NCBI GenBank assembly: GCA_958009085.1
Contig: OY253690.1
Span: 372,001 to 422,614 of the forward strand
Origin: Protoeuglena noctilucae
Taxonomy: Eukaryota
Direction: 5' to 3'
Length of the DNA stretch: 50,614 nt
The notes under the pieces are model-generated. The model was given only the letters and a program-made list of their open reading frames with translations, did not search any database and had not been told where the DNA came from. The position numbers were made by a program, and so were the translations under genes. The first letter of the stretch is position 1, and each line of letters opens with the position of its first letter. Of the stretch, positions 1 through 31,803 are shown piece after piece.

Positions 1-2886
1 GTCACGCCCACGGGCTTCTTCCCCGGCGTGCACGGGTTCGCCATGACCTACCCCGCGAACCTGGCCCAAAACAACGGGGGCCAGATCAACGCCTCGGCCG
101 TCGACGCATCGGGCAACTTGTATGTGTGCGTGTACACCGCGATGGGCTCCTCGACGACGACGAACTACATCAAGAGCCTCAACGGGGACACGAGCCTCCA
201 GGTCGCGGTGAACGACGCCAACTCTTCGGGCGCCGCGCCGTACGTGGCCAAGTTCGACCCGACCGGCACCCTCTTGTGGGCGTGGAAGCCCCTCGACAAC
301 CACTCGACCGTCTCCTCGAACAACGCCACATGCGTCGGCGTGGAGGTGCAGTCCAACGGGCACATCCAGTATGTCTTCAGCCTCCACTTCGGGGACTTCG
401 ACTCGTTCAACCCGGACGGGACTCTTCGGACGTCCGGCTTCGTCAGCGACCGATGCATCGATTACGTGCAGCTCACCGTGAATAGCGCGGGGGCCATCGT
501 GTCCTTCACCACGCCGGTCTCGACGAACGTCGGGGCGGCCACGGGATACAACGCCTGGTTCCCCGAGACGATGGCGTGGAACGGCAAGACCCTCATGAGC
601 ATCACCACGGCGTGGGGACCCAACGCGTACACGACCTCGCCCACCCGGCTCTACTTCGGCAACACGGGGCCAATCGGCTACTACAACGCCGCCTTCGTGT
701 ACCTGAACGATGACGCCGTCGCCATGATGGCCAACCCGATCCAGCTCACGGCGTCGAGCGAGCAGCTCGAGGTGGCCGGGATGACCACCGACTCGTCCAA
801 CAACCTCTTCGTCAGCCTGCTGTACTACGGCGGCGGGGGCTCCCGCACCATCAACAACCTCTCGAGCAACTCGTCCTCTGGGCACACCGTCACCCTCCCG
901 GCCGCGTGGTGCAACGTCGTCCTCTGGTACAATTCGTCCGGCGTGTACGTGGGCACGCCGCTCATGATCACCACCAACGCGAACGCCATGCTCGACATCG
1001 AGTGCGACGGCTCCGGAAACATCTACGGCTATTGGGCCACGTCGGACGCGAGCGTCACCGTCGGCGGCGTCACCGCCACCAGCAAGTACACGCCGTCCGG
1101 GTGGCTGGTCAAGTTCACGCCGACGGGCACCGTGAGCAAGCTCGCCTCGTGCATCGACGCCTCCGCCCTGAGCAGCACGTGGTTGGACTACAACCGGCGG
1201 CTCATGTTCGACGCCACCAACGGCCTCATGTTCCTCTGCCTCCAATGGGGCGGGACGGCGACGGGGACGGCCCTCACCAACCTCGACGGCTCCGCGAGCT
1301 CCGTCGTGAGCCCCAACCGTCCCGGCGGGACCGGCGCGAGCATCTTCGCCCTCAACTGCTCCACCGACAAGTGGGTTTTCGCCTTCACGCCGCTCGGGGT
1401 GGCGACCGGCCACCTCACGTCCGTGTACCAGAGCTACCGCGCGGCCCACGGCAAGCTCCTCGTCAACGGCTACGTCTCGACGGACCAGACGTCCTTGCAG
1501 GTGTACAACGGAGACAAGACGTCCACCACCTCCCTCACGACGGACTCGGCCGCGTACGGCAACTCGACGTACCAGCCCCTCCTCCTCGCCTACTCGTACA
1601 ACGCCACGCCCATGTCGGCCACGCTCCCGCTCCCGTCGCCGTCGTCGGGCAACTTCCTCGAGAAGACGCTGATCATGCAGCCGGGGCTGTCGTACGTGCT
1701 GACGGAGCAGAACAACGCGGGCGACAACACCCGGACCATCCCCACGGCGGCGACGGGCCTCACGGTCGTCCAGTACTACTACGCCGGCGACGCGTGGAGC
1801 CCCGACTTCTCCACCGTCGACCTCGTCAACACCGTCGTCTACGACAGCTCCTCCACCACCACAACCGTCTCCAACACGGACGCCGCCACGCTCAACGGCC
1901 TCGCCTCGAGCCAGTTCGTGAGGTCCGACGTGGCGTCGGGCGTGTCGTGCGCCTCGTCGACCCGGGCCTTCGCCGTAAACAACCAGGCGGGCGGTTTCCA
2001 GGTGGCGAGCTTCCAGTCGGCCGGGACCGAGGTCCTCGGCGTCTCGCCGGGCGCCGTCGCCGTCGCGGGGAGCCTGACCGTGTCGGGCGGGATCTCCGGC
2101 TCCCTCCCATGGTCGGGCGTCACGGGCATGCCGACGTACATCGGCTACGTGTCCACCCTCACGTCCGACTGCCAGAGCCAGCTCGACGCCCTCCGCACGT
2201 CATCGTTCCTCAGCCTCTCGGGCGGGACGGTCAGCGGCACGGTGACGGCGACGTCCTTCATCGCCGACGGGAGCATCACGTGCCAGAGCCTCTCGACGTC
2301 GGGCGCGGTGCGGATCGACGCGTCCAACCCGGGCCCGCTCGTGTACACGCAGTATCCCGCGGGGGTCTCGGACTCGTACGGGCTCGCCCAGGAGTCGAGC
2401 GGGAGGTTGTACCTGTACGCCTCGAGCTACTACGCGAGCTCGACAATCCAGCTCGGGTTCGTGACGGGGGCGGGGACGTACGCGTCCAAGGTCGTCGTGT
2501 CGCAGGGGAGCCCCGAGGTGGCCGTGTCGGGGAGCGTGAAGGCGTCGGGGAGCCTCAACTTCGACAGCGGGGTGATCCCGAGCGTGGGGCCGAGCTCCTC
2601 CGTCATCGTGGCGGGGACGGCCGCCGTCGTCGGCGCCGACCACCAGGCCATGACGCCGGGTCTCTACCGCTGCACGCTGGTGGGGTACAACAACGTGGTG
2701 CCCAGCTTCTCCGAGGTCGTGATCCACGCCCAGGACGCGGGGTCCGGGAACCTGACGATGTACATGTCGGGCCAGGACGCGAACGTCTACCTGCTGTGGT
2801 CGTACGCCAACAACGAGATCCAGATCAACAACACCTCCGGCGTCACCTACGCCAACGTCGCGTGGAGCGTTCAGAAGATCGGGTAG
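1..2886 (+). CDS. Viral fibre / receptor-binding protein with N-terminal beta-propeller (SBBP-like) repeats; 5' end truncated by the window
   Basis: Frame is open from base 1. Propeller-type motifs: AVDASGNLYV, YVAKFDPTGTLLW, TDSSNNLFV, CDGSGNIYG, LVKFTPTG. Tail-fibre motifs: DAATLNGLASSQFVRSD, IGYVSTLTSDCQSQLD, LSLSGGTVSG. Beta-rich C-terminal head. Confidence 0.75.
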   Translation, partial: VTPTGFFPGVHGFAMTYPANLAQNNGGQINASAVDASGNLYVCVYTAMGSSTTTNYIKSLNGDTSLQVAVNDANSSGAAPYVAKFDPTGTLLWAWKPLDNHSTVSSNNATCVGVEVQSNGHIQYVFSLHFGDFDSFNPDGTLRTSGFVSDRCIDYVQLTVNSAGAIVSFTTPVSTNVGAATGYNAWFPETMAWNGKTLMSITTAWGPNAYTTSPTRLYFGNTGPIGYYNAAFVYLNDDAVAMMANPIQLTASSEQLEVAGMTTDSSNNLFVSLLYYGGGGSRTINNLSSNSSSGHTVTLPAAWCNVVLWYNSSGVYVGTPLMITTNANAMLDIECDGSGNIYGYWATSDASVTVGGVTATSKYTPSGWLVKFTPTGTVSKLASCIDASALSSTWLDYNRRLMFDATNGLMFLCLQWGGTATGTALTNLDGSASSVVSPNRPGGTGASIFALNCSTDKWVFAFTPLGVATGHLTSVYQSYRAAHGKLLVNGYVSTDQTSLQVYNGDKTSTTSLTTDSAAYGNSTYQPLLLAYSYNATPMSATLPLPSPSSGNFLEKTLIMQPGLSYVLTEQNNAGDNTRTIPTAATGLTVVQYYYAGDAWSPDFSTVDLVNTVVYDSSSTTTTVSNTDAATLNGLASSQFVRSDVASGVSCASSTRAFAVNNQAGGFQVASFQSAGTEVLGVSPGAVAVAGSLTVSGGISGSLPWSGVTGMPTYIGYVSTLTSDCQSQLDALRTSSFLSLSGGTVSGTVTATSFIADGSITCQSLSTSGAVRIDASNPGPLVYTQYPAGVSDSYGLAQESSGRLYLYASSYYASSTIQLGFVTGAGTYASKVVVSQGSPEVAVSGSVKASGSLNFDSGVIPSVGPSSSVIVAGTAAVVGADHQAMTPGLYRCTLVGYNNVVPSFSEVVIHAQDAGSGNLTMYMSGQDANVYLLWSYANNEIQINNTSGVTYANVAWSVQKIG

Positions 2887-2992
2887 CGTCGCCCGACGAG
2901 ATGAGGGTAAACGCCGTCATGGTATGCCCGGAAGTGTGTGACTAGAATCGGCCCCGACCCATTCGCGCCCTTCCCTCCGTACAACAATCAAG

Positions 2993-3445
2993 ATGACCGA
3001 CCTGCACCCTCTGATCGTGGCCGAGGCCGACGATGTCATCACCGCCGTCCGGGCGAATCCGGACTTCAAGTACGTCCGGTTCAGCGCCTACGGCCCCCCC
3101 GAGCAGCCCCTCGACGAACTCATTCGGCGCGGGAACGACGGCGTCCTCCCGGAAAGCGACGTCGAGCTTCACATGCGGATCTACGGCGACTTCGAGGAGC
3201 GCCACTCGGCCGGTGGCGAGGTCTGCTTCTGGAGAATCCAGTACCGGGGCCACCGGATCGCGAGCCGGCGCGAACGCGCCAAGGAGCTCGCCATCGCCGA
3301 CATGAGGCGGCTCGAGAAAGTCGTCTCGTACCACCACCCGGACGTGGGCGTCATGAAGCGGGGCCTCACGAAGAGAGAGTTCCGGGAGTTCTTCGATGAT
3401 CAGGGTGAGCCGATCACGAACGCCTCGTCGAGGTTCCTCCGGTAG
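2993..3445 (+). CDS. Hypothetical viral protein (150 aa)
   Basis: ATG-started ORF with GC3-rich codon usage like its neighbours; 3' end overlaps the convergent ATPase gene. Confidence 0.6.
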   Translation: MTDLHPLIVAEADDVITAVRANPDFKYVRFSAYGPPEQPLDELIRRGNDGVLPESDVELHMRIYGDFEERHSAGGEVCFWRIQYRGHRIASRRERAKELAIADMRRLEKVVSYHHPDVGVMKRGLTKREFREFFDDQGEPITNASSRFLR

Positions 3446-4302
3446 CGCTCCGGGAGCGGGAGGAGCTTCAGCCCGACGAAGCAGTCGTGGCTGCCCACCG
3501 TGGCCTGGTCCCACATCGCGATGAACTGCTCGGGCGTGATGTCGTCGTCACACAGCGACGCCGCGATGTCCTTCTTGACCTTCATGTTCGAGCACTTGTA
3601 CAAGGCGAAGGTGTTCACCATGCTCCGCAGGCTGAGCGGCAGCGTCTGCGTCCAGCTCTGACTCGAGATGAAAACGGAGCAGCGTCGGTGCCGGCACAGG
3701 ATCACGAAGCGGTTCAGCGGCCCGCTCATCCACCGGCTGAAGACGGTGTTGTCCCCGAGGTGGTCGTCGATGACCAGGCATGCCGTGGGCTTGCCGCGGG
3801 GGTACCTCGGGGCCGGCTTCCAGTCGAAGAAGTCGAGCAGGTCGAGCTCCTCGCCGGTCAGCCTCTCGATCTCGGGCTGGCCGAACTCGTTCGACGGCAG
3901 CCGCCTGAACTTCTGGTACACGGGCGCGTAGGACTCGCCCAGCTCGTGGCGGCTGAGGTGGTGCTCGATCACGTCCGTCACGTGGTCCATGTCGAAGTGG
4001 TCGAGGTACTCGATGTCGACGCCGAGCGCCCTGAACGCATTCAGGGTGCCCTTCACCTTCTTGTCGCGGCCGCTCGTCGGCGAGCACCAGAAGACCCGGT
4101 CCCACGCCTTGGCCTCCAGGTACATCTTGAGGAAGTTGAGGAGGAACGTCGACTTGCCGCGGCCGATCCCGCCGACGACGTAGCCGAACAGCACCTGGTT
4201 GTCCTTCCCCACGTCGGGGAGGCCCTCGGGCCCCTCGCGCACGTGGTCCTCGTCGCCCGACAGCGGCACGAGCCGCGGCACAGAGACCTTCGAGAACTGC
4301 AT
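3400..4302 (-). CDS. A32-like (FtsK/HerA superfamily) DNA packaging ATPase, ~300 aa
   Basis: Walker A GGIGRGKST, Walker B CLVIDD, and the A32 family motif RHRRCSVFISSQ. Start placed at MQFSKV (ATG 4302), just downstream of an A8 tract. Confidence 0.9.
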   Translation of the reverse strand: MQFSKVSVPRLVPLSGDEDHVREGPEGLPDVGKDNQVLFGYVVGGIGRGKSTFLLNFLKMYLEAKAWDRVFWCSPTSGRDKKVKGTLNAFRALGVDIEYLDHFDMDHVTDVIEHHLSRHELGESYAPVYQKFRRLPSNEFGQPEIERLTGEELDLLDFFDWKPAPRYPRGKPTACLVIDDHLGDNTVFSRWMSGPLNRFVILCRHRRCSVFISSQSWTQTLPLSLRSMVNTFALYKCSNMKVKKDIAASLCDDDITPEQFIAMWDQATVGSHDCFVGLKLLPLPERYRRNLDEAFVIGSP

Positions 4303-4344
4303 GCAGAAAGAGGCGGCTTTTTTTTCGAGCGTTCCCGCAAAAGC

Positions 4345-4683
4345 ATGTCCACGTACACGATGGCTGACGTCCGCGCCCTCGAGCGGGAGATCCAGCGCGC
4401 TCACCCGGGCCTCGACTCGTGGTTCGCCCAGGTCCTCGCCCACCAGCACCTCCGCGACGACCTCGGCCGGGAATTTCAGGACCAGGAGCATGCGCCGCTG
4501 CTTTGTTCTCCAATCGAGGCACTCCCTGACGAGCGGGGTGCTGACGTGGGCGACGGGGAGCCTGAGCTTCCCGACCGAGACGCTGCGGGTCCGCCTGGCG
4601 GCGGTCCTGATGCCGGCGGTGAGCTTCCAGGCGCGGGCGCCCATCACGCTGACGCTGAACGGGGCGGCGACCAGCCTGCCTGA
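4345..4683 (+). CDS. Small hypothetical viral protein (112 aa) overlapping the penton gene start
   Basis: ATG at 4345, divergent from the ATPase. N-terminal ~50 aa look helical (MSTYTMADVRALEREIQRAHPGLDSWFAQVL); the rest overlaps the next gene in another frame. Confidence 0.4.
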   Translation: MSTYTMADVRALEREIQRAHPGLDSWFAQVLAHQHLRDDLGREFQDQEHAPLLCSPIEALPDERGADVGDGEPELPDRDAAGPPGGGPDAGGELPGAGAHHADAERGGDQPA

Positions 4684-5176
4684 CACGACGCTCGCCAGCT
4701 ACGAGGACACGGCCGCGTGGCTGACGGCCAACACGACGGGGCTCTCGTGGGACTACATCGAGTCCAGCAACCTCTTCCGCGTGACCAACGCGAGCGGCGC
4801 CCCCGCGACGGTCCAGTGCGACCCGCTCGGCTTCGGGACGGCCGTCGTCGTGCCCGACGGCGCGTCCGTCTCGGGGGAGGTGCAGCCGGTCCTCCAGTGG
4901 CTCCACGGCATCGTGGTCCGATGCAACCTGTTCCGCGGCCTCGCTTCGACGGCCGGCGGCTCCGTCGACGCCGGCGACGTCGCGGGGGTCGTGTCCACGG
5001 ACGGCGAGACGATCCGCTGGGAGAACCTGTCGGACGACTACCAGGTGTGCCGCTCGGACGCCGTCCGCTCGGGCATAGAGGTGCGGCTCCAGGACCTCGA
5101 CGGCAACCTCCTCGTGCCGACCCGCAACGTCACCGTCGTGCTGTCGATCGCCCCGAATTTTACCGGGGTGGAGTAA
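4490..5176 (+). CDS. Probable minor capsid (penton, single jelly-roll) protein, 228 aa
   Basis: All-beta composition. N-terminal FVLQSR...LRVRLAAVLMP, central IVVRCNL, and C-terminal IEVRLQDLDGNLL...VTVVLSI match the pattern I recognise in PLV/virophage minor capsid proteins. Adjacent to the packaging ATPase. Confidence 0.7.
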   Translation: MRRCFVLQSRHSLTSGVLTWATGSLSFPTETLRVRLAAVLMPAVSFQARAPITLTLNGAATSLPDTTLASYEDTAAWLTANTTGLSWDYIESSNLFRVTNASGAPATVQCDPLGFGTAVVVPDGASVSGEVQPVLQWLHGIVVRCNLFRGLASTAGGSVDAGDVAGVVSTDGETIRWENLSDDYQVCRSDAVRSGIEVRLQDLDGNLLVPTRNVTVVLSIAPNFTGVE

Positions 5177-5178
5177 AC

Positions 5179-7008
5179 ATGGCCGACGACACGCTCTGGA
5201 TCTGGCATGACGTCCTCGAGGGGCTCCGCCAGATCCGACCCCGGACGGAGGACGTCGAGCGCCTGCAGGCCGCCGTCGAGCGGGTGCGGGGGATGACGAC
5301 GAGGGAGAGGCTCGACCTCGCCACGCGGCTCTACGTCCACGAGACGGGCTCGCCCGACGTCCACGAGGGCACCGTCGACCTGGTCGACCGCCTCATGCGG
5401 CTCGAGGCCGCCAACCTCATCGCGGAGATCCGCCCCGGCCCCAACCAGGTCACCCTCCCCGCCTACCACGACCGCCGCCTCACCTTCCGCACCTCCCTTC
5501 CGCGCCTCGACTTCCTCGCCGACATCGACCACCTGGTCGCGGAGCGCAAGTCGTCCCCCCCGCCACTCGTCAACCCCCACAAGCGCGCCGCCGAGCGCGA
5601 CGCCGTCAACCCCAACGCCCCCAAGAGGTTCCGCACGCACGAGCCCGAGGAGTCGGAGACCGCCGCCGTCGCGCCCGTCGCGCCCGAGGAGTCCGAGGAG
5701 ACGAGGTCAGTGGCGGTGCGAGCCCCGAAGTGGAAGCGCGACCAGCTCCAGGCGCGCGGCGGGCCGTCGAAGTCGAAGGCTACTTCAAACCACTCGGCGC
5801 TCCGCCTCGCGGACCTCGAGGGGTACGAGCGGTCGGGCGGGCTGTCCCGCGTGACGGAGGAGCCTGCTGTGTCCGAGTCCGTCGGCGAGAGCCCGTCGAC
5901 GACGTCGAAGGCGGCCGGGCCGAGCGAGGCCGGGCCAAGCGAGACGGTCCGCGTCTCCGAGGCGACGAACGCGTACGCCCCCGAACCGGCCTCGCCGGCG
6001 TCTCGGCTGCCCGCGATCACGGAGGAGTCGTCGCGGAGCACGGGCATCGGCGGGGCCGCCCGCACGACGACTGTGTGGGACACCATCAACTCGCTCCGCA
6101 AGCGGGTGGGGCTCCCGCGGATGCGATTCGACGCCGAGATCCAGACCGAGCCCCCCGAGGAGCCCATGCCCGAGCGGCCCCCGTCGCCACACGAGGAAAC
6201 CGCGATGGCCGAGGTGCCGCCGTCGCCGCGGTTCGAGCGCGTGGACAACCCGGAGATCGCGATGTACGAGCTGCCCGACATCGTCCCCAAGGGCACCAAG
6301 ACCGGCCGCGGCGTCCGGAAGGGGAAGTCGAAGCCGACCAAGGTGGTGGTCTTCCGGGACGGCCCGGGCGGGCCGCCCGGACCTCCGGGAGCCGGACCCG
6401 GGACCGCCATCATGGAGCCGGAGGAGCCGGAGGAGCCATCCGGTGCGGGGCCGTCGACGGCGGGGGCAGGGGGCGGCGCACCTCCTCCCGGACCGCCTCC
6501 GGGCGCTGTCGAGGACGACAACGGCGTCCCGGACCACGCCGTGATCCGGCTGGCCGAGCTGACGCAGGGTCCGGGGTACTCCGTGGCTGCAGGAGGGGGC
6601 GGGGAGCCCCCGGGCGGTCCCGGACCCGACGGCGGGGACGTGTACGAGGACGAGCCGATGGGGCCGCCGATGCCGACGGGGACGCACGACGCCGTCGTCG
6701 CCGACCCGCCCACGGCGTCGCAGCCGGCCGCCGAGCCGGAGCCCGACGTCCCCATGGACCCGGAGTTGGGTCAGGAGCCAGCCGCTGGTCCCGTCCCGAA
6801 GGAGGAGCCGGACGACTACGGGCCCATGCCGGTGGACCACGGCTACCTGGAGGAACACGAGACGAAGTGGCCGCCGTTCGACGGGGGCTCCCCCGAGGAC
6901 GACGCAGGCGTCGACCCTGTGTCGGCGTCGGACGCGGACCCCGAGTGGCCGCGGCTACGCCCGCCGATGCACAGGATGCTCGGCATCTGGTCACGATTTA
7001 CTATATAG
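5179..7008 (+). CDS. Hypothetical viral protein, 609 aa: helical N-terminal domain plus long acidic Pro/Glu/Gly-rich disordered tail
   Basis: ATG 2 nt after the penton stop; long ORF; low-complexity PEEP/PGPPG segments. Confidence 0.65.
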   Translation: MADDTLWIWHDVLEGLRQIRPRTEDVERLQAAVERVRGMTTRERLDLATRLYVHETGSPDVHEGTVDLVDRLMRLEAANLIAEIRPGPNQVTLPAYHDRRLTFRTSLPRLDFLADIDHLVAERKSSPPPLVNPHKRAAERDAVNPNAPKRFRTHEPEESETAAVAPVAPEESEETRSVAVRAPKWKRDQLQARGGPSKSKATSNHSALRLADLEGYERSGGLSRVTEEPAVSESVGESPSTTSKAAGPSEAGPSETVRVSEATNAYAPEPASPASRLPAITEESSRSTGIGGAARTTTVWDTINSLRKRVGLPRMRFDAEIQTEPPEEPMPERPPSPHEETAMAEVPPSPRFERVDNPEIAMYELPDIVPKGTKTGRGVRKGKSKPTKVVVFRDGPGGPPGPPGAGPGTAIMEPEEPEEPSGAGPSTAGAGGGAPPPGPPPGAVEDDNGVPDHAVIRLAELTQGPGYSVAAGGGGEPPGGPGPDGGDVYEDEPMGPPMPTGTHDAVVADPPTASQPAAEPEPDVPMDPELGQEPAAGPVPKEEPDDYGPMPVDHGYLEEHETKWPPFDGGSPEDDAGVDPVSASDADPEWPRLRPPMHRMLGIWSRFTI

Positions 7009-7021
7009 GGGGGTAGACATC

Positions 7022-7648
7022 ATGGACGCCCGCACCATGGCCCTCCTCGCGCAGGGCGCCTACCACTCCGACCCCGTCGTCGGCCCGTGGGTCCGTCGGG
7101 GGGGCACGCGGACCATCCACGTCTACCGCAGGGCCGACGACCCGGGCGTCGAGGCGATCGCGTACCGCGGCACGGAGGTGTCGGACCTCGACGACGTCAT
7201 GACGGACCTCGAGCTCATGGCGGCGGGGGGGATGGGGTCGGGCGCCTTCTGGCTGCCCGTCAACGCCGCCCTCAAGGACCGCGTGCAGGAGGCCGTGGCT
7301 TTCGCCCGCACCCGCGTCAGACCCGGCGTCAGGCTGGTCCACGTCGGCCACTCGCTCGGAGGGACGTGCGCCCTCCGCGCCGCCTACGTGGCGGGGGGGA
7401 TCGCCAACGCCTTCGCCCCGTACGTCCCCGTCCGCCTCCCGTGGAACCAGCTCAGGTACCGCCCGGGCATGACGGTGTACGGCAACCGCGTCGACCCCAT
7501 CATGTGGGAGACGATGCTCGACCGCAACTTCCGCCCGGGCTCGGGGTCCGCGAGGTGGAGGCTGATCAGCGAGGCGGGGCAGGGGCCGACCCGGGCGGAC
7601 CAGATGGGGCACGGCCTCGGCCCGTGGACGAGCGGCCGCGCGGCGTGA
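7022..7648 (+). CDS. Class-3-like lipase (alpha/beta hydrolase)
   Basis: Nucleophile motif VGHSLGG (GxSxG) and upstream IAYRGT...DVMTDL motif. Lipases are a known PLV accessory gene. Confidence 0.85.
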   Translation: MDARTMALLAQGAYHSDPVVGPWVRRGGTRTIHVYRRADDPGVEAIAYRGTEVSDLDDVMTDLELMAAGGMGSGAFWLPVNAALKDRVQEAVAFARTRVRPGVRLVHVGHSLGGTCALRAAYVAGGIANAFAPYVPVRLPWNQLRYRPGMTVYGNRVDPIMWETMLDRNFRPGSGSARWRLISEAGQGPTRADQMGHGLGPWTSGRAA

Positions 7649-7679
7649 ACGTCGTGAAAAAATAATCGCCCGCGGGGCA

Positions 7680-8666
7680 ATGACGAAGCTCCGCGTCGCC
7701 GACCTCTTCTGTGGCCTCGGGTCCTTCCACCGCGCCGCCAAGGCGCTCGGCCACGAGGTCGTCTTCGCCGCCGACCTGGACCCGCGGGTCCGAGAGGTGT
7801 ACCGCGAGACGCACGGCCTCGAGCCCGCGGGGGACATCGGGACTGTCGACTGGGGCGCCGTCCCCGACTTCGACGTGCTGTGCGCGGGGCCCCCCTGCCA
7901 GAGCTTCTCCACGGCGGGGCGGCGGGGCGGCCTGGGCGACGCCCGCGGCGACCTCATCCTCAAGATCGCCGACGTCCTGCGCGCGAAGCGGCCGCGGTGG
8001 TTCGTCGTCGAGAACGTCCCCGGCCTCGTCACCATCGACGCGGGCGAGGCCTTCCGCACCGTCCTGCGGACGTACAAGGACGCGGGCTACCGGGTCAAGT
8101 GGGCCATCCTCCGCAGCCACGAGCACGGCCTCCCGCTCTTCCGCAGACGCGTCTTCGTCGTCGGCTCCCGCGACGGCGAGCCGTGGACGCCGCCGCCGCC
8201 GATGCCCTTCGCCTCGCGCCCCACGCTGTCGGAGGCGCTCGGGAGGCCGTTCAAGGCGAGGATCTCGCGGTCGCCCAAGACGACGTACAACTCGACGGCC
8301 ACCGACAAGCGGCAGTGGGCCCGCCTCGCCCTCGAGGACGGCTCGAGCTACTGCCTCACCGCCGACGACGTCCAGAGGCTCATGGGGTGGGGGCCCGACG
8401 AGATCGATTGGGGCCGCTGGAGCTCGAGGGCCGCGAGGATCCGGATGCTGGGCAACAGCATCCCGACGTGCCTCAGCCACGCGGTCCTCGCCGGCCTAGG
8501 CGTAGAGCCGGTCGAGGGCGCGGGCCGCGCGGAGGACGAGGGCGGGGTCGGTCCCGAGCTTGAAGGAGACGGAGCGGTGCCGCTTGGAGAGCTCGAGCTC
8601 GACGGCGGCGGAGTCGGAGCCGTCGAGCAGGAGCTCCGAGCCGATCTGCTCGAGCAGAGCGCCTAG
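7680..8666 (+). CDS. DNA (cytosine-5) methyltransferase, bacterial/viral Dcm-like
   Basis: Motif I DLFCGLG, IV GPPCQSFS, VI ENVPGL, VIII RRRVFVVG, IX LTADDVQRLMG and X MLGNSI, in canonical order. Confidence 0.93.
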   Translation: MTKLRVADLFCGLGSFHRAAKALGHEVVFAADLDPRVREVYRETHGLEPAGDIGTVDWGAVPDFDVLCAGPPCQSFSTAGRRGGLGDARGDLILKIADVLRAKRPRWFVVENVPGLVTIDAGEAFRTVLRTYKDAGYRVKWAILRSHEHGLPLFRRRVFVVGSRDGEPWTPPPPMPFASRPTLSEALGRPFKARISRSPKTTYNSTATDKRQWARLALEDGSSYCLTADDVQRLMGWGPDEIDWGRWSSRAARIRMLGNSIPTCLSHAVLAGLGVEPVEGAGRAEDEGGVGPELEGDGAVPLGELELDGGGVGAVEQELRADLLEQSA

Positions 8667-8777
8667 GTCCACCTTGATCCTCGAGGCGTCGACGACCTCG
8701 ACCACGTCCACCGCCGTGCAGTCGAGCGTCGCCAGGAGCTGGCCGCCGCAGCTGAGAACCACCATCGTTATCTGCAT
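8496..8777 (-). CDS. Small hypothetical viral protein (93 aa)
   Basis: ATG at 8777 with the same upstream CCGCGGGGC context as the MTase; overlaps the non-conserved MTase tail. Confidence 0.5.
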   Translation of the reverse strand: MQITMVVLSCGGQLLATLDCTAVDVVEVVDASRIKVDLGALLEQIGSELLLDGSDSAAVELELSKRHRSVSFKLGTDPALVLRAARALDRLYA

Positions 8778-8859
8778 GCCCCGCGGAAAAAACGGCCCAA
8801 GGGGATCGGCGCCAGGCGTTGAATTAAAAGGGGGAGAGCAACACCAGCAACCAGCGAAG

Positions 8860-9195
8860 ATGATGCGGGAGAAGCGCGAAGACATGGCGCGGGCCCTGTC
8901 CCTGCCCTGTTGGTACCTGGAGTCGCGGCTCTTCCGCGACGGGCTGTTCCCCCAGATCGAGCGGCTCGACGACGCGAGGGACTTCGACGCCATCCTCGAC
9001 CTGGTCGGCGGCGACGAGGACAACGCGCTGGCCCTCCGGTACCACATGGCGGCGACGCAGGGGCTGTACAAGTGGAACATGGCCCAGGAGAGGGTGCTCG
9101 TGCCCTTCAAGCTACGCGATCTCGACGACGCCTACGTCGACCTCTACATCGCCATGTCCCGCACCACGGCGGGGGGGACGGTCGTCCTCGTGTGA
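8860..9195 (+). CDS. Small hypothetical viral protein (111 aa)
   Basis: ATG after an AT-rich intergenic islet; coding-like codon usage. Confidence 0.55.
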   Translation: MMREKREDMARALSLPCWYLESRLFRDGLFPQIERLDDARDFDAILDLVGGDEDNALALRYHMAATQGLYKWNMAQERVLVPFKLRDLDDAYVDLYIAMSRTTAGGTVVLV

Positions 9196-9497
9196 GCAGG
9201 TGACAATTCGACTATTTTTTCGCAGGAAGCCCACAAGGATCTGGGAACCCGGGGAGTCGGCGAGAATCGCCAGGGTCCAGGCCGCGCGGGCGAGAAACAA
9301 CCTTGCACCAGGTCCATGTACCCGGATTAATTTTATCCGGGACCCGCGCGCCGGTCTCGAAGCCCGAGAAGCCCCGGCGCTGGATGTCTGACCAGGTTCT
9401 AGAACATGGGTAAATACCCTAGCCCTGGCGAAGCGCATAAAAGTTCGCGCGCGCGTGGTTTCGCGGACACTTTCTGCGCTTCCGACTCCGATCGAAG

Positions 9498-10200
9498 ATG
9501 CCGAAGGCCCCGATCAAGAAAGGCGAGCCCTACGAGGAGCGCGCGCGCGCGCTCCTTGCGCGAGTGAGGCTCGATAGGTGCATCGTGCCCTTCAACAACA
9601 AGGGGGTGCCGAAGCGCTGCGGCAACAAGCCGCATATGACCATCGCGAACACGAGGCTGCACCTCAACTGCGTCGAGCTTGCGTGCGAGAGGCACCGCGG
9701 GTGAGGGGTCCGGGCGACGAATCCCCCGCAACCTTGCGCGCGCTTCCGGGCCCCACCGGCATCACCCGACGCCCTTGCAGGGTCGTGGAAGAGCTCCTGA
9801 GGGAGTACATCATTAACAACGGCGGAAACCCCACCTGGTGAGGGGCCTGGACTGGTCCGGACAACGGCGTGTGCTCCCGGAAACCGAGTCTCAGTCTCTG
9901 TCGTCTCCGAGTCCACAGGGTCCACCAAACGGACATGCACTTCGAGGCACTCAAGATCGCCGCGAGGGCCAACCCGGGCGACGACACATACGAGATCCCC
10001 CTCTGGCTCCCGTGCACTGTCGGGGAGACGACGGCAGGCAGCACCCACGCCCCCGCAGATCACCCACAAGCGCCGCAAGGTGGTCTCCGGGACGGGTGCC
10101 GCGTCTGGAGCCAGGTGCGTGTGTGTCAGTGCGTCGCTGCACACGGGGTGTCCGGGACGGGCCGCTGATGACACCTCTCGCCTGGTCCGCAGTAACGAGA
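9498..10200 (+). CDS. Spliced hypothetical gene at the element's right end (3' end uncertain)
   Basis: Exon 9498-9700, intron 9701-9780 (GTGAGG...TTGCAG), exon 9781-9837, intron 9838-9918 (GTGAGG...CACAG). Splicing joins one frame: ...ERHRG-VVEELLREYIINNGGNPTW-VHQTDMHFEALK... Confidence 0.6.
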
Positions 10201-10424
10201 TGACCGGCTAGAGACGACGCAGGCGGCCGCAGTGTGGACGACACGGCCCCGACCTGGTGCGTGCCTGCGCCGCGTCACGGGGGGCATTACGCAGGCAGGC
10301 CGGGGGGCTGGGCTCAGACCGAGACGCTTGTTCGGTGTGCCCGCAGATCCATGCAAGTAGACTTTCGCTGGTCGCTGTTGCTGGTCGCCTGGCGCTGTCG
10401 TTGCTCCCCCCCGCTGATCCCCCC

Positions 10425-10580
10425 CTACCAGCGCAAGCTGGTGACCCACCCCCGGGTCGTTAATCTGGGATACGCCCGCCCGGCGTGTAACAAGTGGGTA
10501 GCCACTACCAGCGGAGGCTGGTGACCCCACCCTGGGTCGTTAATCTGGGATACGCCTGCCCGGCGTGTAACAAGTGGGCA
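10425..10580. repeat. Tandem duplication, ~80-bp period, 2 copies
   Basis: GGGTCGTTAATCTGGGATACGCC...CGGCGTGTAACAAGTGGG occurs twice (units start ~10426 and ~10506). Confidence 0.9.
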
Positions 10581-10679
10581 TGGCGGCAGCCAACCAAACA
10601 TGCACTACCCAGCGGGGGGGCCTTGATCTGTCAGCTCACCCCTGGGCGGGCACCCAGTTGAAGAAGAACCAGCGAGCCG

Positions 10680-10950
10680 GTGATCAAAGAACCCTCTGGC
10701 CGTTCCACCGGTCCAATTTTTTTTTGACAGATTTTGGGGAAATCTTTTTCGGTCTCCCCGAGCCGGCCATTGTCCGTTGTCCCCCGTTGTGATCAAAGAA
10801 TCCCCTCGCATGGCCGTTCCACTGGTCCAATTTTTTTTTGACAGATTTTCGGAAATCTTTTTCGGTCTTCCCGGGCCGGCCGTTGTCCGTTGTCCGTTGT
10901 CCGTTGTGGTCAGCCCCCGCATGGCCGGTCCACCGGTCCAGTTTCTGACA
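10680..10950. repeat. Tandem repeat, ~109-bp period, 2 copies plus a partial copy, with poly-T tracts
   Basis: TGATCAAAGAA at 10681 and 10790, each followed by GGTCCAATTTTTTTTTTGACAGATTTT; partial third copy ~10915-10950. Confidence 0.9.
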
Positions 10951-11045
10951 TATGGGGGAAAACCCTTCGCGTTTCAGAGTGGCCTCCCGCCTGGTCAGGG
11001 CCTCTACCCTGACCGCTGTCTGTCACGCGAAGTGTGTCCCCGAAA

Positions 11046-11210
11046 TTCTGGCGTTTTCGGCGCTGTCAGTTCGCGTTTCAAAGGGCTTTTTCGTCAGGCG
11101 TCGAAATTTCGCGTTTTCGAACGGCGATTTTCGTCGTTTCGTTGTTTTCTGGCGTTTTCGGCGCTGTCAGTTCGCGTTTCAAAGGGCTTTTTCGTCAGGC
11201 GTCGAAAGTT
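11046..11210. repeat. Tandem repeat, ~101-bp period, 2 copies
   Basis: TTCTGGCGTTTTCGGCGCTGTCAGTTCGCGTTTCAAAGGGCTTTTTCGTCAGGCGTCGAAA at 11046 and 11147. Confidence 0.9.
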
Positions 11211-12169
11211 CGAGTCTCGCCGTTAGCTTTCCAAATGGCCAAAAAAGTTTTGCGCTGGCGCTGGTCTTACCCCACCACTGCTGCGCAGGCCACCATGAGC
11301 ATATCGGGCTGTCGATATATGGGCATAACTGGGCATGCAACGGAGTGGTTACGAGAGACGTAGTGCATATAGGTAGCCCATAGTTTTCCAGAAGCCCTGG
11401 CCGATGCCGTGCTTGGCGTCAAAGGGGCCGCAACTCTGCACGCTTTTCGCGTCTGGGCGGCCCCCTCTGTACCGTATCGGGTACAGCGAAGGCTAGCAAC
11501 GATGAACACCAACCCCAATATGCTGCTCTGCGCCGCCCCCGGATTGTTTGGAAGCAGCGCGGGCACTTTCAAAATCCACGCAGTGCATGCCTGCCCTAAG
11601 TTGCTCCTGACGATGTCTTACTCTCCACTTCTCTTCCCAACGTGTTGCTTTAGTGCCACGTAGCATTCAAACACCATCTATATGTCCATCGCCGTCCCCT
11701 CGAGGGCGTGATTCTCTCCGAGCAGCGCAATGCTTGATGGAGACTAGCATTGCATTCCTCCTTAATCGTACTTTTCTCCCTGTTAGCAACGAGGCTGCAC
11801 ATCAAGCATCGAGACGCGCAGAGGGCGCACAGTGCGAGAAAAATGCGCGCGACCCAATGGCATCGGAATCTCTGCGACATCGTCGCGATCGAATCTTTAT
11901 TGATGTCTGAAAGCATCGCAGCCGGCCATCGCTCGGATAGCTCCCCGGGCAGCGCTGGCCAGCTCCCACAGCAGCAACGCCTGGCCGCCCTTGCCGCGCC
12001 CCGTCGCGCCAGCCGTTCCGTCGGAGTGGCGCCTTGCCCCAGCCAGCGCACGCACACACAGCCAGACCATCTCGTCCGCACACTCCGCGCCGCTTCCGCA
12101 GCCCCAGAAAACCGCGGGGTGGCTTTGATCCGCTCGCCCCGCACGTTCGCGCCCCTTGCCGTCGTCACA

Positions 12170-12562
12170 GCGCCCCGATGATCTCCGTCACCGACTCTCT
12201 GCTTCAATGCGATTATCGACCACGCGATTGCAACGCAGGAGGTCCCCGATACGGCCTCCTTGACGCTCCGCGTGTCGCGCACGCGTGCGATCACCGGACC
12301 CGACCCCGGCGCGCCGGCGGCTCCGGCCCGGACGATGCGCCCCACGTTACCGGAGATAGTCCCTCTACCGATCGCGACCGACGTTGCGGCCGCAGGACGC
12401 CGTCGCTGCCGCGACTGGCACTGCCCACGCCGCCAGCCGCGCCTCAGCCCGGCGGGTTCCGCCCGAACACGGCGGACGCCTAATGTCCGCCGGCGGGTTC
12501 CAGCCTGGAACCCGCCCCGGAACCCGCCCGGGCCCCGGAACCCGCCCTGAGTCCTCCCAGTG
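12170..12562 (-). mobile_element. Degenerate dispersed repeat / DNA-transposon terminus (CACTG end), copy 1
   Basis: Alignable to 15088-15364 (shared GCGGCCGCAGGACG..GTCGCTGC.GCGACTGGCA and GCGGGTTCCAGCC); both end in TCCTCCCAGTG. Confidence 0.55.
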
Positions 12563-12863
12563 CCCCCAAGCGACACCCAGGGGGAGCCGGGCTGAGGGGC
12601 TGGGCTGGGTGTGGCTCTTCTTCTCTGCAGCTGGGTTTTGGTCTATGCGGCTCCTCCTACTCCTCCTCATATTTCCCCTTCTAGGTCTCTTCTTCTTCTT
12701 CATCGCCTCCCTTGAAGGACCTTCTGGCTGCTAGGGTTTTTTAGGGTACCCTACCCGCTTAGCCTAGTAGTAGTAGCCTCTTGAATTCCACAGTGGTAAA
12801 AAAAGCGCGCAGGGGGGCTGTTCGCGAATCTTGACACCCCAAGATAAGAAGCAAGCATGCATC

Positions 12864-14629
12864 ATGCGTCACGTGCTGGGGCTGACCGTGTGGTGGCTCT
12901 TGGGGTAAGTCCAGGCACGCATGCGTGTCTCATCGTCCCGACGTCACATTATGGCATGCTTTGAGCCCTCCGTGGCCCGCATGCCCCTGCAGGGTGTGCA
13001 CGGCGGAGGCTGCCCTCCATGTACGCTTTGCGGGGGCCGACTGCCCGAGTATCGATGGCGATGTGTCGCTGGATATCCCCTTCTTGACGCACCCGCACGA
13101 CGCCCTTCGCTTCGTGCTGACGAAGTACCCAGCCTTGCACTCCATAGAGTTCGCGGTCATGTCCCTGCTTGACATCATCGTCTATAGCACCGCCCACCAC
13201 CCGATCGTGAGCTACCAGGTTGCTGTGGATGGTGCTCCGGAGGGCCGCGCCGTCCTTCGGGTCTGGGCTCACGAAGATGTGGATGCAGCTGTTGCAGCAT
13301 TCGCACAGCGCTGGGAGCTCTCCGAGAGCGACAGGGCGGAACTGGAACGCAAGTCGGTAAACATCATACATGTAGTTGCCGACAACGACCCCGCCGTGCT
13401 CACGTTCGCGTTTCCGGACCAAAGTATGTTCGGCAATCTTCGAGCGGTGCGGGGCGCGTATCTTGGCCTCGCCCGTGGCATGTTCGCTGGACTCGTTATT
13501 TGTAGGCTGATGTGGTGGCTACATTGTTGGCCGCAGGACGCCGGGCTGAGCAAGTTCACGGCACAGGGCCCTGCCCGCGTGGACTCGACGGCATTCAGCC
13601 CATCCGTGGCGGGGCAGATCTTCCACGCGCTGAAAGGAACGCTCGGCGCGTCACACTGTGGGGAGGAAGATACCAAAATATGTTTTCTCCTGACCGACCA
13701 CCCTCATGTGCGTGCGACGGCAGCGTGGTTCCCCGACCCCGTCCAGTGGGCGGTGGGGCCCCTCCTGGAGCCCTTCCAGCCCGCCCTCGTCTCCGATGCT
13801 CCGGTCATGCGCGCCCTGCTGCAGTGCCGCGCATCGCCGTTGCCGCGGAGGGCCTGCGAGGCGAGCCCTTGCTGGCCGGTGGCCTTCACGGGGTGCGGCT
13901 ACTCGGGCACAGGACTGCTGGAGCGGCTTTTCCGCTCGGGCCTAGGAGTGGATTTGCGGCACGAGGAGCTGGGGGACGACGGCACGTCGTCCTGGCCGGT
14001 GGCATTCAGCGCAGCAGATGCGGCGTTCGAGCGCGTCATGGTTCAGGTGCGGCACCCGCTGGCGGTGGTGCGGTCGCATCAAAACACGGCATTCGCGTTC
14101 AATCTCGAGCGAGAACTCGAGGCGGCGGGCGTCAAGGACTTTGTCTACGCGGACGACGTCCTCCCTCCCTGGGCAGGGGCGGCGATGGGGCCCCCGTTCC
14201 AGGCGCTGGCGTGGTGGCTGTCGGCGAACGTGCTGGCCTTGGAGCACGCGGACTGCTGGTGGCGTCTGGAGGACCTGGTGGCGCACCCGCGCATGGCCGT
14301 GGAGATCTGTGCACGGGCGTGGCCGGGGCGGTGCGGGTGCGAGGACGTGGACTGGGCGGCCGTGCTGCAGGCGACGGGGCGATCCAACCGGCACGCGGTC
14401 GACGAGGCGAGTCACCCGGGGCGCGCGGCATGGGATGTTAGCGCCGAGGCTTGGCACGCTGCATGCCTCTTGGCAAGACAATGAACTTGACAGCCTCCCG
14501 GGTCCCCACGGCACGCAGGCGGTGTGGACGTGGCGGCTTTTGGGGTACTTGTCGCAGACGTCGGAGGAGCGGCAGGTGCTGCTCGAGGCCAGGCTTATGT
14601 GCGGGCTGCTGGGGTACGAGGACTGTTGA
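12864..14629 (+). CDS. Secreted/Golgi sulfotransferase-domain protein (spliced)
   Basis: Hydrophobic N-terminus MRHVLGLTVWWLLG, then intron 12905-12992 (GTAAGT..CAG). PAPS-binding-like motifs FTGCGYSGTGLL and QVRHPLAVVRS. Last exon ends LLGYEDC*. Confidence 0.7.
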
Positions 14630-15087
14630 TGATCAGAGGCGGTCGCTGTCTACGCTCCAGGCTTGAGGTATTTCAAGTCCTTGCAGTGCTAGAGGCCTCC
14701 TCTACGCCTGTTTATTTCCCAGAAGTCGAGGCCCAGTATACTGTTCTGCTGCGGATCCTGCCCTTGGTGCACAATGCCCAGCATCACAGGCTCACCATGA
14801 AGAGGTTGGGGCATGCGTCCTCCGCGACTTCATAATCCCTGTCGTACTGCAAGCAGCAGCCAAAACAGACGCTGCAGTCCCTGCATGTGTCACTTGCTGC
14901 AGGGGTGCCAGCTCCCAAATGGCCAGCCCCTGACCTTCCGCCTGTGGGAGGGCGAGTGGATGGCCGAGGCTGTGCCGGCCTTCCTGGCTGGGGCAGGGGC
15001 CGACACTGCTACAGCAGACAAGGTGGCGCTCCGTCGTCGTGCAGGTGCGGACCAGGGGCGGGTTCCATGTGTATGTGTGTCGACACA

Positions 15088-15364
15088 GCGCCCGATGCTC
15101 TATGTTACCGACCCTCTGCTTCAAAACGATTATGTACCACATGCATGCGAGGCTTTGGCCCGGCCGATGCTCCACGCGTCACCAAAGATGGTCCCCTTAC
15201 CCATCGCGGCCGCAGGACGCGGTCGCTGCTGCGACTGGCAGCGCACATGCCCAAAGCTGCGGCCCACTACGGCGCGTTCCGCCCAAACACGGCCGACGCC
15301 CAGTGTCGCCCAGCGGGTTCCAGCCCTGGAGCCCGCCCGGAATCCGCTTTAATTCCTCCCAGTG
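15088..15364 (-). mobile_element. Degenerate dispersed repeat / DNA-transposon terminus (CACTG end), copy 2
   Basis: Diverged copy of 12170-12562 with the same terminal TCCTCCCAGTG. Confidence 0.55.
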
Positions 15365-15523
15365 TTGTGCGCGCCTAGTATGCCTCCTTTAAGGCAACAT
15401 GAGGCAGTACTTCCCGAGCTGTGCTTGCGTTGTATGACAGCGGGTCGTAGATAGTAAGTAGCCCTGGGAGGCCGTCAAAGAAGGCCCTGTCGGCGGCAAG
15501 TGAATGGCAAGTCAGGATAATGC

Positions 15524-16804
15524 TCAGAGCTTTGCTGCCGACGAGGACGAGTGCGTGTCCATCCTCAGCACTCGCCTGGAGTTAATGGACAGCCTCCCCG
15601 TGTGCCCCACTACGCGAGTGGTGTCCGCCCAGATGTCCCAGCCCAAGGCCCGGACGCGCTCGGCAAAAGCTATGTAGTCAGTCGGGGACTGTGGAGCAGC
15701 AAAAGAAGCTTGGAGCATGTGCAAGAGCAATAAGCTGTTGCGGATCGAAACGGGGGTGGGGGTATAACGCCCGTTTTCACCTGCTCTAACAACCCTTCGA
15801 GCCCCTGCGTGCAAAACATGCAGGGGATTGCCCCAAACAGCTGGTTTTCAACCCATGTCTCTGGGAAGAAGGCCACGAGCTCCTCCACGACGTGCCGCTT
15901 GATGAGGACGAGCCCTGCGACGTCAGGCGCGTGCAGAGCCGTTGCGGCGTCGCATCCATCCTGTCGGGTGAGTCACAGGCGGAGACATGAGCGCAAGCAC
16001 CTGTCGCACCACTCACCAAACCCGACGCTCTTGACCCGGATGAAGCCGTCCACGACACGTCCGGGATCCGGCACGTCATCCTGCTCTAGAAGTTTGACGT
16101 TCTCCTCAAATGCCAGCCCAGGCAACACCGCCGCTGCTGTGCCCTGCGGGTGTAGATGCCATCCTCTCGCACGCCGTGCATGGCTGGCCATCAGCAGCGA
16201 ACAGTGACAAGCGTGATTCTCGCCTGCAAGACCCTACCGAAGTTGGGTCGGGAGCGGTGCAGCAGGGCAGGGATGGCCGCCACGTCGGCGTCGAATGCCA
16301 ACAGTCGCTCCACGTCCGCTGAGCGGGGCGACAAGGGCCGGGACTGAGCGAAGCGAGCACGCAACAAAGCCAGAGCTCGCAATAGGCCACAAATCCCCTC
16401 ACATGCCCTAAAATCGATGTCCACATCGGCAAGCAGAACGTGGGTCATCGTAGGGTCCTGAAGACTGGAGTACATGGACCACGAGCGCGAAAGGTAGGTC
16501 TCCGCAATATTTTTGGCGAAGCTCAGCTGCGAGCGCAATGTCGGGCTCTGGTATTTGATATTTGCGCCACAGCGAGGCATGACTCCGAAACTCCTCGCCA
16601 CAGCGAGGAACTGCGACCCGCCTGGATCTTCACGCCCTTGTCAGGACGAATCATGTGGAAATGGTGCGCCAGGTGAAATGCCGATATGTAGCCATCACTG
16701 GTAACAGCCATGCTGCTGCCGATCGTAGACAGCGTGACCACAGCGGCGAGAGCAGCCTCGTGCAGCGTGAGAAGAACCACGATAGCGGCTAGCATGACCA
16801 ACAT
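15524..16804 (-). CDS. GT-A fold glycosyltransferase-like protein with signal anchor (spliced), paralog of 31939-33259
   Basis: N-terminal MLVMLAAIVVLLTL; DxD motif THVLLADVDIDF; VKSVGFG; C-terminal DYIAFAERVRALGWDIWADTTRVVGHTG. Confidence 0.7.
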
Positions 16805-17723: not shown

Positions 17724-17898
17724 GCCCTTTTGGCGGCCCCGCTCTCCAGAGGCCTCTCGCCCCGCGCGTGCGCTCGCTAGGGGCTTGAAGAATGTAGATG
17801 TCGGCGCGCGAAGCGGGACGGTCGCCGGGCGACTCGGGAGACGGGGACACTGGTTGCGCGGGCGTGCGCGTTCCCGACCGCGACGCCGGCGTCCGCAG

Positions 17899-18419
17899 GG
17901 TCGGCTGCGGGTTCATTGGATACCGCGAGCCCCAGCGAGGTGCGCGCCGTGTACGTGCGGCGCGCCATGAGCCTGCGGGAGCTGGGCGACGAGGACCTGG
18001 CGCGGCTGGCGTCGGTGATACTGGAGGAGCACGGGGTGGCGCTTGAGGTGGTGCGGGTCGAGGCCATGACGGTGGAGGAGCAGGTGCGGCTGTCGGCCAG
18101 GGTCGACCTCATGGTGGGCGTGCACGGCAACGGCCTGACCAACCTGCTGTGGATGCCGCCGCACGGGGCGGTGCTGGAGCTGTTTGCGGCCGACTGGCAC
18201 TTCTACGATTATCAGATGCTGAGCGAGATCAGCGGGCACCTGTACAGCGGGGTGCAGGAGGGCAACCCGCATCCGTACCGGCGGGGGTCGCGGCGAGAGT
18301 CTGTCTACGGTATGCAAACATTTGGCCCAACCTCGCTGGACTGGGAGCTTGTGAGCCACGAGTTAGCCTTCCTGCTGGCGCGCATCATGGCATGTTGTGG
18401 TGGCCCAAATGAGCACTAG
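17899..18419 (+). pseudogene. 5'-truncated GT61 glycosyltransferase paralog (or terminal exon of a short gene)
   Basis: Motif EEQVRLSARVDLMVGVHGNGLTNLLWM. 17923-18301 is near-identical to 22083-22461; upstream sequence is not homologous. Possible acceptor CGCAG ending at 17898. Confidence 0.6.

Positions 18420-28409: not shown

Positions 28410-31803
<3,394 letters not shown>

Follow-up and report, generated by a model that had tools for sequence, protein, structure and literature searches.

It has been proposed that integrated Polinton-like viruses (PLVs) serve marine algae as inducible defences against giant viruses, and how they remain latent yet ready is, to our knowledge, largely unknown. 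This question is raised by a stretch of 50,614 nucleotides from Protoeuglena noctilucae (assembly GCA_958009085.1, contig OY253690.1, positions 372,001 to 422,614; hereafter the window), near the left end of which the original prediction, made from the letters alone, had placed an apparently intact endogenous PLV about 40 kb from a telomere. The analysis presented here indicates, with a probability of roughly 0.7, that positions 1-11285 are the right-hand part of an integrated small DNA virus of the double-jelly-roll type within the PLV supergroup. Membership in the supergroup itself is likely but unproven, and the most likely state of the element is that of a latent provirus. Its host is a GC-rich, intron-bearing marine eukaryote, and the distance from the end of the element at 11285 to the TTAGGG telomere is 39 kb, in agreement with the predicted figure.

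Tightly packed open reading frames (ORFs) on both strands fill the window from position 1 to about 9200 (Table 1). Across this block, the GC content at the third codon position (GC3) is 0.95-1.00, compared with about 0.5 at positions 1 and 2, and its phase shifts precisely at the ORF borders, while GC3 drops to the right of the block. The window as a whole has a GC content of 0.56-0.79 per kb, and the combination of high GC3 with phase switching at ORF borders indicates genuine packed genes rather than chance ORFs of GC-rich DNA. The overlaps between neighbouring ORFs that had been predicted are found at 3400-3445 and 8496-8666, and no frameshift or internal stop occurs in the compact ORFs of 1-9200. 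The viral block is thus real, dense and composed of intact frames as first described, although its description as intronless is not borne out and part of its proposed gene identities are weakly supported or unconfirmed.

The gene on which the viral assignment turns is that of the A32-like packaging ATPase of the FtsK-HerA superfamily, one of the proteins by which PLVs are recognized. Its translation contains a Walker A motif (GGIGRGKS) and a Walker B motif (VIDD), and its core comprises 300 aa from a start at 4302. Taken alone, the protein matches the Pfam family Pox_A32 at E=0.0014 and 18.6 bits, under the cut-off of 22.8; the assignment becomes firm because of its relatives and its fold. An exhaustive HMMER search returned 246 relatives at E<=0.001, including 70 at <=1e-10 and 7 at <=1e-30. 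Most are about 290-310 aa long. The ATPase can be aligned with relatives over its full length, and the Walker A motif, the DD of Walker B, one arginine, and one glutamine are invariant or almost so. Pox_A32 is matched by 43 of the 60 relatives scanned (best 3.5e-10), and FtsK_SpoIIIE is absent among the 25 families listed of the 26 that these 60 relatives match. An AlphaFold model built from a 93-sequence alignment has a predicted local distance difference test score (pLDDT) of 95.4 and a predicted template modelling score (pTM) of 0.91. Used to search BFVD, this model gave 96 fold matches at E<=0.001, led by the unnamed viral protein R4TIK5 (E=6.5e-15, template modelling score (TM) 0.76), which is presumably a PgVV protein; giant-virus A32 ATPases follow at TM<=0.55, and the FtsK-HerA ATPase of mavirus is found at rank 31 (E=7.7e-7, TM 0.46). 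A literature search on R4TIK5 or DUF5901 found no paper. Among PDB structures, the best fold match is the STIV2 B204 packaging NTPase, with FtsK and HerA next. The ATPase resembles B204 and poxvirus A32 in fold and motifs but differs in sequence, with 8-17% identity, and in length, with about 300 aa compared with about 200 for B204. Family matches and the modelled fold together offer good support for a viral packaging ATPase of the A32/FtsK-HerA type as opposed to a cellular or tailed-phage FtsK; neither kind of match groups it with the latter proteins, the outcome that the original prediction had named as telling against it.

The distribution of the ATPase relatives is also informative. A word-based homologue search recovered two proteins only, the ATPase itself and one relative. 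No relatives were found in IMG/VR with the ATPase, a 4-sequence ATPase alignment, or the distant relative P0016 as queries, nor in scans of JGI metagenomes, and tblastn against a phage collection gave no match. The cluster of the window ATPase and the two closest relatives sit on contigs of 102, 529, and 362 kb, so the nearest clusters lie inside cellular genomes, while more distant relatives occur on contigs of 1.4-19 kb. For a 45%-identical ATPase (P0004) and a 39%-identical relative of the fibre-like protein described below (P0168), the longest contig is 20,097 bp in each case, and this common figure suggests, without proving it, a single PLV-sized element with the same gene pair.

Among the remaining genes of the block, the C5 cytosine DNA methyltransferase (MTase) had been correctly predicted and, judged by its sequence, is certain. 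It matches PF00145 at E=9.9e-50 with 170.2 bits (cut-off 22) and phrog_116 at 1e-62 over residues 1-270, and motifs I, IV, VI, and X are legible in the translation as FCGLG, PPCQ, ENV, and GNSIP. The frame extends about 55 codons beyond the last motif, into the convergent ORF. The predicted lipase is retained as a putative alpha/beta-hydrolase: its GHSLGG elbow is present, but every match is centred on this elbow and is sub-threshold, in Pfam (Esterase 0.011, Lipase_3 0.02, Abhydrolase_6 0.022), in PHROG (phrog_21992 esterase/lipase, 0.0062), and against cutinases and lipases of the PDB (E of at least 0.022). Candidacy of the 188-aa ORF as a minor capsid (penton) protein is based on its size, its adjacency to the ATPase gene, and its beta-rich character. 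Sequence comparison with Pfam, PHROG, and the PDB gave no match, a word-based homologue search returned its own cluster only, and its single-sequence model was unusable (pLDDT 40.6); by its features it resembles unnamed Atlas clusters of wholly or mostly viral make-up (0.95, 171 shared features), which serves as a lead only.

The long ORF cut by the window start had been called fibre-like. It is conserved in two related elements, and no Pfam, PHROG, or Atlas match was found. It is rich in Ser, Thr, Gly, and Asn, and its first half contains repeated D-x-S/G-G-N-x-Y motifs. With P0167 (1067 aa) it shares 53% identity over 873 columns (query 3-841, subject 93-956), which, like the end-to-end alignment of the ATPase, agrees with the prediction that the ORFs are intact. 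Since these relatives are about 1060 aa long, approximately 90 N-terminal residues are expected to lie left of the window. The smaller ORFs of the block are less telling. The 150-aa ORF overlaps the 3′ end of the ATPase gene by 46 nt in convergent orientation, and its sole Pfam match (SinI, 0.066) is noise. In the 609-aa ORF, the N-terminal part is helical and the long tail, rich in Pro, Glu, and Gly, is probably disordered; neither this ORF nor the 93-aa and 111-aa ORFs has a Pfam match.

Four sequencing runs (X1 and X2, DNA; X9 and X10, RNA) were compared as contigs with positions 1-16000, and DNA as well as RNA contigs place the right boundary of the element at 11285, close to the predicted end near 11250. 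Loose contig ends lie behind 11285 in X1, X2, and X9, and behind 11282 in X2. The contigs of X1, X2, and X9 that reach 11285 run on into one identical alternative flank, a sequence not found in the window. This shared flank implies that at least the right end exists in a second copy and marks 11285 as the end of a repeated unit. Of the genome of about 14-40 kb bounded by terminal (inverted) repeats that is expected of a PLV, the window shows the probable right terminus, which follows on a zone of repeats at 10422-11215; within this zone the copy number of the 101-nt unit varies in RNA (joint 11045->11147). In X2 the depth is 30 over the element and 13-17 over the flank (approximately twofold), and in X1 it is 120-146 and 98-110 (1.2-1.5 times), which is compatible with about two near-identical copies, contig depths being a crude measure.

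The contigs of both DNA runs end 235 nt left of the window start, as inferred from record length minus aligned length. They match the window at about 99.9%, with 11 (X1) and 13 (X2) differences over 10 kb and no indels listed within 1-10011. A recent insertion is therefore plausible, as copies or strains differ by about 0.1%. Classification covered 23 of the 31 single-letter differences, the 8 at 10353-14960 being left out: 3 are non-coding, 6 synonymous, and 14 non-synonymous, and none produces a stop. Intact frames among the copies could reflect simple youth, whereas sister elements conserve the full-length ATPase and fibre-like protein at 39-73% identity, which shows, at the level of sequence, a constraint on the family.

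The element is present and transcribed in natural samples. Of the sequence words of 2001-12000, 0.94-0.95 are present in runs of 'organism A' and in the 2016 marine metagenomes, and 0.41-0.77 in four metatranscriptome runs; in all, 14 positive rows for this interval came from four studies. Two further runs (X13, X14) contain 0.05-0.06 of the words only and were discounted as evidence. Most of 402-8823 is represented in RNA contigs. In the host intergenic bin 11749-12282, RNA depth is 0 in X9 and 0.35 in X10 despite coverage in the DNA runs, so the RNA signal is not mere DNA carry-over, and the spliced joints cannot derive from DNA. Three such joints within the block (4297-4404, 5262-5482, and 8772-8916), together with four plus-strand introns in the gene at 9498-10211, contradict the prediction that the element is intronless. 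All three block joints read CT..AC on the plus strand, equivalent to GT..AG on the minus strand. The intron at 4297-4404 (108 nt) lies in frame near the 5′ end of the ATPase gene and its removal gives a 327-aa form, which also exists as P0154 on a contig of 3117 nt. The intron at 5262-5482 is antisense to the 609-aa ORF, and that at 8772-8916 (145 nt) lies in the 5′ leader of the 93-aa ORF, removes its first ATG, and spans the beginning of the divergently oriented 111-aa gene. Both minus-strand genes open with ATG-CAG, the AG of which is the 3′ splice site, so that the start codon is lost with the intron at 4297-4404 and at 8772-8916. The two minus-strand genes may be expressed from one long transcription unit on that strand whose leaders are spliced; alternatively, antisense or read-through RNA may be processed at cryptic sites, and the contigs cannot decide between these readings. 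A further RNA joint (4806->15045, with loose ends at 4789 and 15062) appears to be a brief fortuitous match from an unrelated contig and was rejected.

Between the compact block and the terminal repeats lies a gene of host style. RNA joints define its introns at 9701-9780, 9838-9918, and 10115-10192 and, in its 3′ part, a further one at 10257-10346; all four are plus-strand GT..AG introns of 78-90 nt, resembling those of a host gene nearby at 12.9-14.5 kb. The exons of the spliced gene match no Pfam family. Its contig depth in run X9 is 90-257, the highest in the region, compared with about 10-12 for the viral ORFs, so the gene is apparently strongly expressed and dominant in the element. DNA contigs run unbroken over 4366-10011 (X1) and 1-10011 (X2), linking this end gene to the viral block in every assembled copy, and it is therefore counted as part of the element. 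The window copy contains 46 nt (10012-10057) that the RNA form lacks, which alters the frame of the gene, and the contigs of both DNA runs are interrupted at 10003-10011. An intron at 10012-10057 was considered and rejected, given its GT..CA ends, its length of half the local intron size, and the contig breaks there. A likelier explanation is that the two copies differ by an indel and that the copy expressed is the one next to the other flank. In the 302-nt gap before the spliced gene, a perfect palindrome with a 7-bp stem (CCCGGAT...ATCCGGG, 9312-9332) was also observed, which could be a terminator or a protein-binding site.

By analogy, the visible gene set is most like that of PgVV-type PLVs. 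The accessible part of the report on this group describes a core of major (MCP) and minor (mCP) capsid proteins, A32, PGVV05, and Tlr6F, often joined by an alpha/beta-hydrolase (ABH, with a GHSQGG elbow in PgVV) and the fibre-like Ltf, encoded by the longest ORF; both are widespread in the group and occur in virions, and repeat units make up the termini (10.1101/2022.07.28.501842). From this set, A32 is present here, the ABH-like ORF with GHSLGG is weak, and the long fibre-like ORF is without demonstrated homology to Ltf. The resemblance to these viruses (Gezel-like; PgVV-14T), as far as they are described there, extends to an A32 ATPase gene beside a small candidate minor capsid gene, a hydrolase with a GHSxGG elbow (GHSQGG in PgVV, GHSLGG here), a fibre-like longest ORF, repeat-built termini, and integrated forms in algal genomes. 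It is a likeness of described gene sets, not a sequence link to PgVV proteins. On the other hand, MCP, PGVV05, Tlr6F, TVpol, and a tyrosine recombinase are not seen in the visible part, and a C5-MTase, the 609-aa Pro-rich ORF, spliced transcripts, and an intron-bearing end gene are found here in addition. PLVs of Tetraselmis and other protists are likewise integrated, multi-copy, and expressed (PMC9356565; 10.1101/2025.10.09.676808; PMC12220804), a likeness by description only, and the available passages of these reports make no mention of spliceosomal processing of PLV transcripts. According to those passages, endogenous PLV genes are expressed in cultures and metatranscriptomes (PMC12220804), and some endogenous PLVs are reactivated by a giant virus (10.1101/2025.10.09.676808). 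Introner transposons have been described within integrated viral elements in dinoflagellates, in the excerpted part of a further report (PMC12166617). As judged from titles and the openings of abstracts, no paper on splicing of PLV transcripts was found.

Several observations weigh against assigning 1-11285 to an integrated PLV. The visible part contains no major capsid, polymerase or primase-helicase, integrase, or protease gene: among the 11 ORFs of 1-11250, neither Pfam nor PHROG gave a capsid family match in this part of the element, no replication gene (pPolB, TVpol, primase-helicase) or integrase gene (tyrosine recombinase, rve) was found, and no Pfam domain of an adenain-type cysteine protease is present. 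The PLV interpretation of the original prediction is consequently carried by the viral A32 ATPase and a gene set mirroring that of the PgVV type, while the defining genes beyond the ATPase are absent from the window or not established. The lipase matches all fall under the curated cut-offs, and the penton assignment is without support from sequence or fold. All three joints within the block are on the minus strand and two are antisense to plus-strand genes, a pattern that read-through or antisense RNA would explain as well as true viral mRNAs would. With 14 non-synonymous and 6 synonymous differences, purifying selection is not apparent at so shallow a divergence. Finally, no short-read contig spans 11075-11256, where the 101-nt repeat lies, and just 30 letters of the contig that starts at 11256 lie to the left of the boundary. 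The subtelomeric join thus rests on the assembly of the window itself, with which the short reads are consistent without proving it.

It is possible, if doubtful, that the element is a dead or domesticated remnant that is transcribed by the host and whose frames are intact only by virtue of a recent insertion or a subtelomeric duplication. The ratio of differences just given would fit such a remnant, as would host-spliced transcripts that are partly antisense to structural genes, a second copy that could stem from segmental duplication of the subtelomere, and the 46-nt frame shift of the spliced gene in the window copy relative to the RNA form. Against it stand nine compact ORFs that are open and full length relative to relatives at 39-73% identity, which shows long-term constraint on the family, the lack of any stop among the 23 classified differences and of any listed indel in 1-10011, and the divergence of the copies exactly at a repeat-rich terminus, as expected of an element end.

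The other alternatives concern affiliation. It appears improbable that the block belongs to an endogenous giant virus (Nucleocytoviricota), or to an intermediate-sized relative like Mriyavirus or a 'dwarf NCLDV', of which it would be a fragment. Most named BFVD fold matches of the ATPase are indeed giant-virus A32 ATPases, its Pfam family is Pox_A32, C5-MTases are common in algal giant viruses, and the left extent of the element lies outside the window. Mriyavirus-related groups with both an MTase and A32 have also been described, in the part of the report that is accessible (10.64898/2026.06.19.733378). However, the giant-virus ATPases remain well below the top unnamed match in TM, the A32 scores in Pfam are weak for the relatives and under cut-off for the window protein, the element ends just 7 kb from the ATPase gene, the 20,097-bp contigs of the fibre and ATPase relatives are of PLV size, and no other giant-virus domain was detected in the 11 ORFs scanned. 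A virophage (Lavidaviridae-like) or a true Polinton/Maverick is a still more remote prospect. Morphogenesis genes such as those for the A32 ATPase and penton are common to these groups, the mavirus ATPase is among the fold matches, and the integration and replication genes that would discriminate lie outside the visible part; yet the mavirus match is weak, the 11 visible ORFs contain no cysteine protease, rve integrase, or pPolB domain, and the pairing of a fibre with an alpha/beta-hydrolase is that of PgVV-type PLVs as portrayed in the available text (10.1101/2022.07.28.501842).

The flank to the right of about 11.3 kb consists of ordinary host genes with introns, and 7 of the 32 ORFs scanned there have Pfam matches (Table 1). 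An NAD-GH match at 29729-30652 on the minus strand, opposite to the HSP70 gene, is probably not a gene. About 1.3 kb past the element end, at 12581-12765, DNA contigs of X1 and X2 have loose ends, a 1-nt deletion at 12633, and a 72-nt skip at 12659-12732; the low relative depth of these variants points to a second allele or a repeat. Just inside the telomere, a single open frame of 2158 codons (43117-49593, plus strand) contains about 42 imperfect repeats with periods of 84, 129, 213, 300, and 384 nt. The predicted product is rich in Gly, Thr, Ala, and Ser and gave no Pfam match; the GC content there is 0.79, with a strong skew of G over C. No tRNA genes were found in the whole window and no Rfam families in 1-16000. 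The original prediction had named a green alga as the host; the TTAGGG repeat is not the usual telomere repeat of green algae.

Table 1. Coordinates of the element's features and of features in the host flank (window positions).
Feature	Position	Strand	Basis
Fibre-like ORF, 961 codons seen, 5′ end cut by window start	1-2886	+	ORF, GC3 0.91-1.00
ORF, 150 aa	2993-3445	+	ORF list, GC3 frame
A32-like (FtsK-HerA superfamily) genome-packaging ATPase	3400-4491	-	Family, motifs, fold
Candidate minor capsid (penton) protein, 188 aa	4610-5176	+	Divergent from ATPase
ORF, 609 aa, between penton candidate and hydrolase	5179-7008	+	ORF, GC3 frame
Putative alpha/beta-hydrolase (lipase/esterase), 208 aa	7022-7648	+	Nucleophile elbow GHSLGG
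C5 cytosine DNA methyltransferase	7680-8666	+	PF00145, phrog_116
Small ORF, 93 aa	8496-8777	-	ORF, GC3 frame
ORF, 111 aa	8860-9195	+	ORF, GC3 frame
Host-style spliced gene, ~140 aa, Cys/His-containing	9498-10211	+	RNA joints
Terminal non-coding repeat zone	10422-11215		80-nt unit x2, ~113-nt unit x2-3, 101-nt unit x2
Right boundary of repeated unit, probable element terminus	11256-11285		Contig loose ends
GT61 glycosyltransferase ORFs (two)	17781-18416, 21500-22552	+	Pfam
GATA zinc-finger ORF	26979-27965	-	Pfam
Multi-exon HSP70 gene	28294-31800	+	Pfam
Telomere	50368-50611	+	TTAGGG x41 at window end

If 1-11285 is the right-hand part of an integrated PLV, roles can be proposed for its genes. 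The 188-aa ORF beside the ATPase gene would be the vertex (penton) protein, the GHSLGG hydrolase would be a lipase of the virion that serves in entry, and the attachment fibre would be formed by the ORF of more than 961 aa. Just left of the window one would then expect the major capsid gene, which adjoins the fibre gene in PgVV. The element is transcribed in wild populations, part of its RNA is processed by the host spliceosome, and the intron-bearing, host-style gene at the right end appears to be the one it expresses most. A layout of this kind has a parallel in punuivirus, a latent giant endogenous virus of Chlamydomonas, for which the available part of the report describes intron-bearing latency genes under host-like control, intronless virion genes under viral control, and a TET dioxygenase in conflict with host cytosine methylation (10.64898/2026.10.09.758095). 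The likeness, within that description, is one of chimeric layout, with intron-rich genes beside intronless virion genes. The differences are that punuivirus is a giant virus, whereas the element here is small, and that its case draws on single-cell expression data as described there, compared with four RNA-supported introns in one gene and contig depths here.

On this basis, a two-part design may be put forward, albeit speculatively and with more doubt than belief. The end gene and a long spliced minus-strand RNA would share the promoter region at 9196-9497, and the minus-strand RNA would run antisense through the MTase, lipase, Pro-rich, and penton genes to reach the ATPase gene. Acting jointly, the end gene and the antisense RNA would hold the intronless virion genes in check during latency, the C5-MTase of the element would join in an epigenetic tug-of-war, and the arrangement would be active in natural blooms.

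Integrated PLV inserts are already known, and what is unusual here is transcription with host-type splicing in wild samples, along with an apparently dominant end gene that contains introns, in a provirus of small size. Lack of introns, when used as a criterion for spotting such inserts, can therefore miss parts of them. As the element is near-identical in culture and in wild marine samples and is transcribed at sea, it offers a concrete small-virus case in which the control of latency can be considered.

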